From the IMG/VR virus record IMGVR_UViG_2874962485_000005: a stretch of DNA of 50,883 nucleotides, one strand, 5' to 3'. A program made the translations under genes and the position numbers. Of this stretch, positions 42,645 to 43,235 are shown piece after piece (the first letter of the stretch is position 1; every line of letters starts with the position of its first letter). The stretch comes from a virus. Its lineage: Duplodnaviria; Heunggongvirae; Uroviricota; Caudoviricetes. Below the pieces are notes generated by a model, which ran no database searches, was not told the origin of the DNA, and was given only the letters and a program-made list of their open reading frames with translations.

Positions 42645-42672
42645 CGCAACAAAAAACCCGCCGAAGCGGGTT
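42645..42672 (-). terminator. Rho-independent terminator downstream of hok
   Basis: Minus strand AAACCCGCTTCGGCGGGTTTTTTGTTG. Confidence 0.6.
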
Positions 42673-42740
42673 TAGTGCGGGTGCGTTGAGGATGCCTGAC
42701 ACATGAGAGGTGGCGAGGGATTTCTCCCCCGCCTGGTCTC

Positions 42741-42896
42741 TTACTCCTCAGGTTCGTAAGCTGTGAAGACAGCGACCTCCGTCTGGCCGGTTCGGATTCG
42801 TACCTCGCAGAGGTCTTTCCTCGTTACCAGTGCCGTCACTATGACGGTTAAACAGATGACGATCAGGGCGATTAACATCGCCTTTTGCTGCTTCAT
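42741..42896 (-). CDS. hok: Hok/Gef-family type I toxin (HokD/RelF-like, 51 aa)
   Basis: MKQQKAMLIALIVICLTVIVTALVTRKDLCEVRIRTGQTEVAVFTAYEPEE; ORF 42741..42953 is the in-frame upstream extension. Confidence 0.8.
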   Translation of the reverse strand: MKQQKAMLIALIVICLTVIVTALVTRKDLCEVRIRTGQTEVAVFTAYEPEE

Positions 42897-43235
42897 AGCC
42901 TGCTTCTCCTTGCCTTTCGGCACGTAAGAGGCTAACCTACATTTGTGAGACATAGATTGGGCCTCAGATTAATGTTAAGCGTCTTGCAGGACGCGTAATG
43001 TTAACTGGGGCTTTTCTCTGTCTGCCTTACAGTGGCATGCCCGAGGCAGACAGCCTCAAGCACCCGCAGCAATCTTACCGATACCGATAAGAAAACGCTA
43101 TTTTTTATTGCCAGCACCTTCTATCCAGGCTAATTTATCTGCGTCAGAACGGCGCAATGCGCTCGCCTGAGATACGTTTACTTGCCATGGTAACAACAGG
43201 TAACGGCAATTGCTGTTTCTGTTTTGTTTCCTTCA

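Follow-up and report, generated by a model that had tools for sequence, protein, structure and literature searches.

A probably complete hok/sok-family toxin-antitoxin module of the hokD/hokW subtype in a lambdoid prophage's nin region

The window analyzed here, the whole 50,883-nucleotide stretch of the virus record IMGVR_UViG_2874962485_000005, very probably (at a probability of about 0.87) carries a complete type I toxin-antitoxin module belonging to the hok/sok family and to its hokD/hokW subtype, in a lambdoid prophage. The sequence and structure elements of the module are all present, intact, and conserved (Table 1), and the locus is apparently functional. Its expression, 3′ processing, toxicity in the host, and biological role are taken by analogy from studied relatives. 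The initial annotation had placed a HokD-like toxin gene with an in-frame upstream extension at 42645-42953. This span does hold mok, hok, the 3′ untranslated region (UTR), and the terminator, but it stops short of the 5′ leader, the Sok gene, and the promoter of hok, which reach as far as about 43100.

Table 1. Features of the hok/sok locus, in the order of the hok mRNA followed by the antisense gene; coordinates are those of the window.
Feature	Coordinates	Strand	Remarks
Putative weak hok promoter	43072..43100	-	-10 TAAGAT at 43077..43072; poor -35 TAGCGT at 43100..43095; A-rich upstream
Full-length hok (mok_hok) mRNA, 414 nt	42652..43065	-	5′ end from RF01794 position 1 and the conserved GGGUGCUUGAGG; 3′ end from the terminator
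tac element, mRNA nt 1-12, GGGUGCUUGAGG	43054..43065	-	Pairs with fbi in the full-length fold
ucb / anti-SD of mok, AAGCCCC, mRNA nt 53-59	43007..43013	-	CCCC pairs with mok GAGG (helix 3)
mok Shine-Dalgarno (SD) GAGG	42962..42965	-	8 nt upstream of the mok ATG; read from the sequence; invariant in 26 loci
mok frame	42741..42953	-	70 codons, in frame with hok, common stop codon
dcb / anti-SD of hok, GCCUCUU, mRNA nt 134-140	42926..42932	-	Pairs with hok SD AAGGAG
hok Shine-Dalgarno AGGAG	42906..42910	-	Read from the sequence
hok toxin ORF	42741..42896	-	51 aa, same sequence as E. coli K-12 HokD (RelF)
UACG motif, Tyr47 codon, A at 42757	42755..42758	-	TadA A-to-I editing site; would recode Tyr to Cys
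3′ UTR stem-loop GGCGGGGGAG-AAAU-CCCUCGCC	42712..42733	-	Helix 14; 95.3% paired, one covarying pair
fbi element CCUCAACGCACCC, mRNA nt 375-387	42679..42691	-	Pairs with tac
Intrinsic terminator of hok mRNA	42648..42673	-	Hairpin and T-run 42673..42654
Sok antisense RNA, about 71 nt	42945..43015	+	Transferred from annotated sokW (933W) and sokC (K-12)
Sok promoter	42910..42938	+	-35 TTGCCT at 42910-42915, 17-nt spacer, -10 TAACCT at 42933-42938

The listing of open reading frames (ORFs) gives a 70-aa frame on the minus strand, MSHKCRLASYVPKGKEKQA-MKQQKAML...AYEPEE, with an internal ATG at 42896 from which the 51-aa Hok is read. The ORF matches the Pfam family HOK_GEF (PF01848) at 81.6 bits (E = 3e-23; cutoff, 22), in agreement with the Hok/Gef assignment made initially. 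The 51-aa protein is 100% identical to UniProt HOKD_ECOLI and 92% identical (47 of 51 residues) to the toxic HokW, which bears out the description HokD-like and shows the hok frame to be unmutated with respect to HokD. The upstream extension is equally real but is nothing beyond mok: it is the mok frame itself, arranged as in mokC/hokC and mokW/hokW. The mok ATG lies 57 nt upstream of the hok ATG (42953 − 42896 = 57) and is preceded by its Shine-Dalgarno sequence as GAGG-N8-ATG at 42965..42951; the frame stays open for 70 codons through hok, so that the integrity of mok, which the initial annotation had marked for checking, was confirmed. The strong terminator announced downstream of hok was likewise found, as an 8-bp stem with 5 GC pairs and a 4-nt loop followed by the T-run. 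A tblastn search of the window retrieved no second Hok copy, and a search for a repeat of the leader elsewhere in the window found none.

The neighboring genes agree with the prophage origin proposed initially. Upstream on the same strand lie genes for a DnaC-like loader, a Ren-like protein, HNH proteins, and two phage proteins of unknown function (one DUF551), whereas downstream there are a Rem-like ORF of 83 aa, an IS1 element (41483-42250), and NinB-like, HNH-like, and Q-like antiterminator genes. This order identifies the nin region of a lambdoid prophage on a Shigella flexneri-type chromosome, with the locus flanked by the replication genes on one side and the Q antiterminator on the other. 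A cluster look-up for an upstream 27-aa ORF returned a DUF551-dominated cluster and was uninformative. A 2.15-kb stretch that surrounds the gene and spans the downstream IS1 junction is 99.95% identical both to S. flexneri SFBU1023 (CP182556.1) and to a genome labeled E. coli ECMA0423; for a 741-nt region, the best match among complete E. coli genomes is 98.6%. E. coli AVS0790 and phage pPE4 share this gene order, with no IS1 in it. In the window, the start of IS1 is 2 nt past the stop codon of the Rem-like ORF; its distance from the hok terminator is about 400 nt, which leaves the transcript and the locus untouched. Four IS1 copies are present in 51 kb. The host prophage looks degraded, and the module may therefore no longer serve an active phage.

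The hok mRNA leader is recognized by Rfam model RF01794, which matches 43065..42891 over model positions 1-157 with 118.1 bits (E = 2e-26; threshold, 59). The covariance-model search suggested initially as a means of finding Sok did give a strong match, but it lies on the hok-sense strand and is misleading for Sok. The matches of the same model at K-12 hokC (118 bits) and at 933W hokW are also hok-sense, whereas the annotations of these loci put sokC and sokW on the other strand. The model thus detects the hok mRNA leader, which contains the complement of Sok, and the reading of the match as the antisense RNA itself was rejected. Since the Rfam "sok" model gives the wrong strand, automatic pipelines will place the antitoxin on the strand of the toxin. 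The sole plus-strand match to the model, at 43007-43159 with 12 bits (E = 8.4), is noise, and the other low-score Rfam matches in 42300-43600 (isrK-like at 30.6 bits, STnc30, and leaders) only picked up terminators. CssrC, the founding RNA of RF01794, "sok antitoxin (CssrC)," is a transcript of about 340 nt on the same strand as its neighbors (PMC3071730). Equating the window copy with the CssrC detected by northern blotting in S. flexneri 301 is doubtful, as CssrB and CssrC are 17.8 kb apart there, against 39.5 kb between the CssrB match and the leader match here; CssrC may be a paralogous copy.

A predicted Sok gene is present on the plus strand. It has a promoter of its own, and the RNA would begin with a 5′ tail that can pair with the mok start region and end in a terminator hairpin. 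Its position follows from two annotated relatives, sokW of 933W, which is 71 nt long and overlaps the first 9 nt of mokW, and sokC of K-12, which starts 8 nt inside mokC in antisense orientation. The window aligns with 933W without gaps across the Sok stretch, its Sok promoter stretch is identical to that of sokW, and the probe YO-597 of Takada 2021 (PMC8621323) matches it at 30 of 30 positions. In the same study, primers YO-421/422 mutate the TAACCT −10 box, and antitoxin activity is abolished (Takada 2021, PMC8621323). The Sok RNA is laid out as a 14-nt single-stranded 5′ tail, a long hairpin, and the U-rich tail GGGGCUUUUCUCU, which may extend to 43019; at −30.7 kcal/mol, the fold of the 75-nt RNA has a z score of −5.9. 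In all of 26 aligned homologous loci (Escherichia, Shigella, Kluyvera, Pseudocitrobacter, Erwinia, and phages), the promoter keeps its hexamers and 17-nt spacer, and the RNA keeps GGGGCUUUUCUCU and the tail-hairpin-tail layout. The hairpin corresponds to helix 3 of the mRNA, which has four covarying pairs. The interval 42900..43150, in which the initial annotation had expected Sok, does contain the promoter, the predicted RNA, and its hairpin. The interval is nonetheless too broad for Sok, which takes up only about 42945-43015, the remainder including the leader to 43065 and the hok promoter.

The position of the putative hok promoter was likewise set by homology. Its −10 hexamer TAAGAT aligns with TAGAAT in 933W, TATAAT in K-12 hokC, and TATGAT in the R1-type plasmid, and it is located 6 nt upstream of the conserved GGGUG/GGCGC at the 5′ end of the mRNA. 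A scan for consensus promoters missed both the hok and the Sok promoter, as their hexamers fall under its 9-of-12 rule; sokW, sokC, and the R1 type served instead as the homologous references by which the two were placed.

Folding of the 414-nt full-length mRNA gave a minimum free energy (MFE) of −175.4 kcal/mol, with a z score of −7.6 against shuffled sequences. In the MFE fold, the tac and fbi elements form 12 bp with one bulge and close the molecule. On the alignment of the 26 loci, 88.7% of the cells of this fold are paired, compared with 39 to 45% in slid controls in which the partners were shifted by 1 to 3 columns. Thirty pairs are changed on both sides, and in four of five covariation measures none of 500 shuffles attains the observed value. 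The tac-fbi helix is paired at 96.8%, with exchange of GC for AU at one pair in five sequences and G-U transitions elsewhere. The helix that buries the hok Shine-Dalgarno sequence (helix 5, CCUCUU/AAGGAG) is paired at 95.4% and has two covarying pairs. The fold of the hok mRNA, which the initial annotation had also proposed to check, is in this way supported by closure, stability, and covariation.

Removal of the last 43 nt in silico causes the 5′ end of the mRNA to refold, and tac then forms a hairpin with nt 19-29 that is paired at 98.6% across the 26 loci. Nucleotide 12 takes part in both structures. With its fbi partner it forms GC in 20 loci, AU in 5, and GU in 1, whereas with its hairpin partner it forms GU in 12, GC in 9, and AU in 5. 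This is the coupled covariation expected of two mutually exclusive folds. The ucb element can alternatively pair with tac; its AAGCCCC is near-invariant in the 26 loci and is kept in the R1-type copy. The boxes of ucb, the mok Shine-Dalgarno sequence, dcb (GCCUCUUAC), and the hok Shine-Dalgarno sequence are kept across the loci and in the R1-type IncFII copy. The tac-ucb and SD-dcb pairings are complementary but invariant, which makes covariation uninformative for both. A helix of the truncated fold between alignment columns 45-53 and 113-123 was dropped, being paired at 67%.

The full-length ensemble leaves little of the start regions accessible. The mok Shine-Dalgarno sequence and AUG have probabilities of being unpaired of at most 0.09, and GAGG itself of at most 0.01, in both cases except for one bulged A. 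Four of the five bases of the hok Shine-Dalgarno sequence are unpaired with probabilities of 0.12 to 0.45 (0.84 for the 5′ A), and the hok AUG is mostly paired. With its Shine-Dalgarno sequence sequestered in this manner, hok would depend on mok for its translation, as in the model for R1. Toward the 3′ end, the UACG motif is invariant across the 26 loci; its A, C, and G are unpaired in the full-length fold (0.87 to 0.95), and its U is mostly paired (0.25). In K-12, hokD is reported to be edited at the same Tyr codon (PMC5630033). The 3′ UTR stem-loop, which is likely to protect the processed mRNA at its 3′ end, is the counterpart of the final stem-loop in the truncated hok mRNA of R1, where disruption abolishes toxicity (PMC9841398).

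The relation between the mok and hok frames varies among the 26 loci. The homologous upstream ATG is in frame with hok in 13, in the +1 frame in 10, and at the head of a 19-codon frame in 3. The +1 frames give overlapping products of 55 to 69 aa, with ATA in place of ATG at one locus, and the stop codon of the 19-codon frame overlaps the hok start as ATGA. By this comparison, it is translation reaching the hok start that is conserved, rather than the Mok protein. In agreement with this, Le Rhun 2022 (PMC9841398) reports that the act of translating mok is what counts, and not its product, and that mok need not be translated past the hok start. Some gene callers annotate the 70-aa ORF as a plain coding gene for a long Hok, which would have no control at the RNA level, and public records list exactly this product under the name "Hok family toxin," with at least 999 contigs carrying it. 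Such a reading is very improbable, as the occurrence of the upstream ATG in all three frames among relatives leaves the N-terminal 19 residues unconserved as protein, and it is the leader RNA structure and the Sok gene that are conserved instead. The expectation that an out-of-frame mok sets the R1 type apart from the type seen here was also rejected, because the IncFII copy has mok in frame; with frames that vary even among close relatives, the frame relation was not used as a family criterion.

As a hok/sok module, the locus would be expected to work as follows, by homology with plasmid R1 hok/sok and with hokW-sokW of Sp5. The weak promoter would give a stable 414-nt hok mRNA that is translationally inert, with its 5′ tac clamped to the 3′ fbi and the ribosome-binding sites of mok and hok buried. 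Slow trimming of the 3′ end would remove fbi and allow the 5′ end to refold, exposing the mok start region. For as long as the DNA is present and transcribed, the short-lived Sok of about 71 nt would be made from its own promoter inside mok, and its 5′ tail would pair with the mok start region, blocking mok translation and leading to cleavage of the duplex. Since ribosomes traversing mok would be needed to open the hairpin at the hok Shine-Dalgarno sequence, the block of mok would also be a block of Hok. When Sok synthesis stops, through loss of the element, shut-off of transcription, or prophage induction, the processed mRNA would be translated, and Hok (51 aa), the in-frame 70-aa Mok-Hok, or both would enter the inner membrane and kill or lyse the cell.

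The candidate roles of such a module are prophage addiction, help in lysis, phage exclusion, or none. The main role might be not in addiction but in lysis and phage release after SOS induction, like that of hokW-sokW in Sp5, with read-through from the early-right operon or loss of Sok switching Hok on. Treatment with mitomycin C causes sokW to vanish and HokW to appear in a RecA-dependent manner, and deletion of the locus halves the phage yield (Takada 2021, PMC8621323). The window locus is co-oriented with the early-right genes, and induced transcription would cross the Sok promoter head-on. A bidirectional terminator at 43234-43266 is, however, located just upstream of the hok locus, and the prophage may be non-inducible. 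In addition, the 933W locus is near the right end of its genome and not in the nin region, so that arguments that depend on position do not transfer. A main role in lysis is therefore considered somewhat unlikely for the window copy.

The locus could also be structurally intact but silent, a hitchhiking remnant in a decaying prophage that serves neither addiction nor defense. The region is ridden with insertion sequences, and the hok promoter is weak. Chromosomal hokA, hokB, and hokC lack postsegregational killing and activation by rifampicin, as Pedersen & Gerdes 1999 is summarized in bioRxiv 10.1101/2025.08.07.668861, and hokA, hokC, hokD, and hokE are cited as inactive in K-12 in Bar-Yaacov 2017 (PMC5630033). 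The inactivity of K-12 hokD, however, is due to loss of its leader, and the window copy retains the leader. Compensatory change is seen even among very close relatives (mRNA nt 15/46 is G-C here and A-U in the others), an identical leader is found again in unrelated genomes, and the near-identical hokW-sokW is active (PMC8621323). Silence is judged unlikely on these grounds, and a module capable of function is preferred.

The target of the single-stranded 5′ tail of Sok, the mok start region with codons 2 to 4 (42943-42960), changes faster among near-identical loci than any other part of the leader. Three hok/sok copies in one S. flexneri genome have three versions of it, differing at 5 to 7 of 14 nt. 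It is possible, though on the doubtful side, that this diversity reflects selection for mutually orthogonal antidotes, with drift of the mok frame as a by-product. If so, each prophage would addict the cell independently.

As a family, hok/sok has had textbook status since the 1980s, and the locus described here is already known, being an element of a familiar kind with a toxin gene that is already annotated. The exact 70-aa and 51-aa sequences are each found on at least 999 public contigs, as "Hok family toxin" (S. flexneri and E. coli) and "HokD." The locus matches 79 phage records, often annotated as MokW/HokW/SokW, and 1455 plasmid records at lower identity. Of 5426 complete E. coli genomes, 4269 (about 79%) have homologues of the leader, counted when a match spans 80% or more of the leader; the median is two per genome, and no annotated feature lies under these matches. 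In the complete E. coli genomes, annotation covers the hok coding sequence (CDS) only, and mok and sok are never annotated. A recent survey reports that hok is enriched in prophages (bioRxiv 10.1101/2025.08.07.668861).

Among known systems, hokW-mokW-sokW of the Stx2 phages 933W and Sakai Sp5 is 92.5 to 92.8% identical to the window in nucleotide sequence over about 400 nt. The mokW (213 nt) and hokW (156 nt) frames of 933W have a common stop codon and a 57-nt offset, as in the window; both systems have a mok of 70 codons in frame, a hok of 51 codons, and a Sok of about 71 nt that overlaps 9 nt of mok. The Sok −35 and −10 hexamers and the region of the hok Shine-Dalgarno sequence are identical, and the same 18-nt insertion is present in the Sok/target hairpin. 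The two differ at the C terminus of Hok, with TAYEPEE in the window and VDYESEK in HokW, and in the Sok 5′ tail and its target, where 5 of 14 nt are changed and mok begins MSHK in the window and MLNT in mokW. Furthermore, the window has a canonical intrinsic terminator, whereas 933W diverges directly after fbi. HokW is toxic and is neutralized by sokW, with partial dependence on RNase III and Hfq (Takada 2021, PMC8621323).

The similarity to hokC(gef)/mokC/sokC of K-12 is lower, at about 75%. The mokC (16751..16960) and hokC (16751..16903) frames again have a common stop codon and a 57-nt offset in frame, as in the window, but the Sok hairpin is without the 18-nt insertion, and IS186, 20 nt past the stop codon, removes the 3′ UTR and fbi. 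More distant still is R1/IncF hok/mok/sok (parB), whose Hok in the R1-type copy is only 42% identical to that of the window. In this system, tac, ucb (AGCCCC), the mok Shine-Dalgarno sequence (GAGG), dcb (AGCCUCUUAC), the hok Shine-Dalgarno sequence (AAGGAGAAG), and UACGAA are conserved, RF01794 matches with 87 bits, and the R1 hok mRNA follows the same logic of two alternative folds (PMC9841398). After the tac hairpin, the insert in the R1-type leader is longer than in the window, and the Sok hairpin is shorter. As judged from the G176T mutant in PMC9841398, mok is out of frame with hok in R1 proper, in contrast to the in-frame arrangement of the IncFII copy.

The toxin gene itself is matched exactly by K-12 hokD (relF) of the Qin prophage. 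Its 156-nt CDS is 100% identical to that of the window, its 3′ UTR, fbi, and terminator agree with those of the window at about 98%, and in both cases a Rem-like ORF and then a Q-like antiterminator follow downstream. This identity (98.5 to 100% over the CDS and 3′ UTR) could suggest that the window gene is a hokD of the K-12 type, the third gene of a relBE-hokD operon without mok or sok. The alignment refutes this reading, which is given next to no weight: homology to K-12 ends at 42910, 14 nt upstream of the hok ATG, and upstream of this point the window has a full leader and no relE, whereas in K-12 relB-relE are fused there. K-12 hokD is without tac, ucb, the mok start, the −10 box of the Sok promoter, and the Sok RNA, all of which are kept in the window. 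Because its leader was replaced by relBE, K-12 hokD is regulated differently. The window copy, in contrast, is on this alignment the untruncated form of K-12 hokD and would show the arrangement that the gene had before relBE took over the leader.

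The segment of the hok mRNA that is complementary to the single-stranded 5' tail of Sok (window positions 42943-42960, nt 106-123 of the mRNA) forms a cluster of variable columns among eight loci that are each at least 88% identical. In these same loci, nt 109-120 contain eight variable columns, compared with one to two per 12 nt in the adjoining leader. Shigella flexneri SFBU1023 carries three hok copies (L012, which is of the window type, L010, and L016), and the Sok-tail target is distinct in each of them. Given this variability and the three different versions within a single genome, the antitoxins of co-resident hok copies may be orthogonal to one another.

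The UACG motif at the Tyr47 codon of hok is invariant across the 26 aligned loci, and the predicted fold of the full-length mRNA leaves three of its bases, A, C, and G, unpaired. At the same site in hokD of Escherichia coli K-12, A-to-I editing by TadA is reported to recode Tyr to Cys (PMC5630033).

The Rfam family RF01794, named "sok antitoxin (CssrC)," matches the window at 42891-43065 on the minus strand, that is, on the hok-sense strand. It also falls on the hok-sense strand in the homologous loci L003 (502-654) and L004 (2509-2683), and the annotated sokC and sokW lie on the opposite strand. RF01794 is in reality the family of the hok mRNA leader, and any pipeline that relies on it therefore places the antitoxin on the wrong strand.

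Further elements of the window are listed in the table. The isrK/C4 pair occurs twice in opposite orientations, which suggests that the window either contains two lambdoid Q-region modules or carries an internal inverted duplication. IS1 is present in four copies in 51 kb, and the copy at 41483-42250 is inserted 2 nt past the stop codon of a Rem-like open reading frame (ORF) (42253-42504), a pattern typical of Shigella genome decay.

Features of the window outside the core of the hok locus, with the Tyr47 motif
Feature	Position	Strand	Source or remark
UACG motif, hok Tyr47 codon	42755-42758 (A at 42757)	-	Sequence
isrK/C4 antisense RNA pair, two copies, with c4-a1b1 target	8012-8200; 39743-39944	+; -	Rfam
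CssrB, Shigella sRNA	3408-3590	-	Rfam, 151.6 bits
ALIL frameshift pseudoknot of IS3-family element	16819-16935	+	Rfam
Group II intron domain	29141-29227	-	Rfam
Four clustered tRNA genes (downstream of Q-like gene)	37351-37658	-	Rfam
IS1 copies	2465-3232; 18136-18903; 27361-28128; 41483-42250		
27-aa hydrophobic ORF, MTWPEAFTTVGIAMAVALVVYSICRWG	43271-43354	-	ORF listing
13-bp bidirectional terminator	43234-43266	Both	After 27-aa ORF, immediately upstream of hok promoter

In one of the related loci, a paralogous hokD-type copy (L008, CP178302.1, "ECMA_copy2"), the tac element is degenerate (GACTGCATGTGG), and both ucb and the Sok hairpin carry small deletions; in contrast to the intact locus of the window, this copy is probably inactivated. 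The record named "Actinobacillus phage vB_Apl-pPE4" (PP818812.1) carries a hok locus that is 97% identical. Its lambdoid nin-region has the same gene order as in E. coli prophages, and the assignment of Actinobacillus as the host looks doubtful. The 27-aa ORF retrieved no PHROG match, and its start also lies within YO-432, a primer used for cloning hokW-sokW (Takada 2021, PMC8621323). In the window, the stretch from the ORF to the hok promoter includes approximately 190 nt that phages 933W and pPE4 lack.
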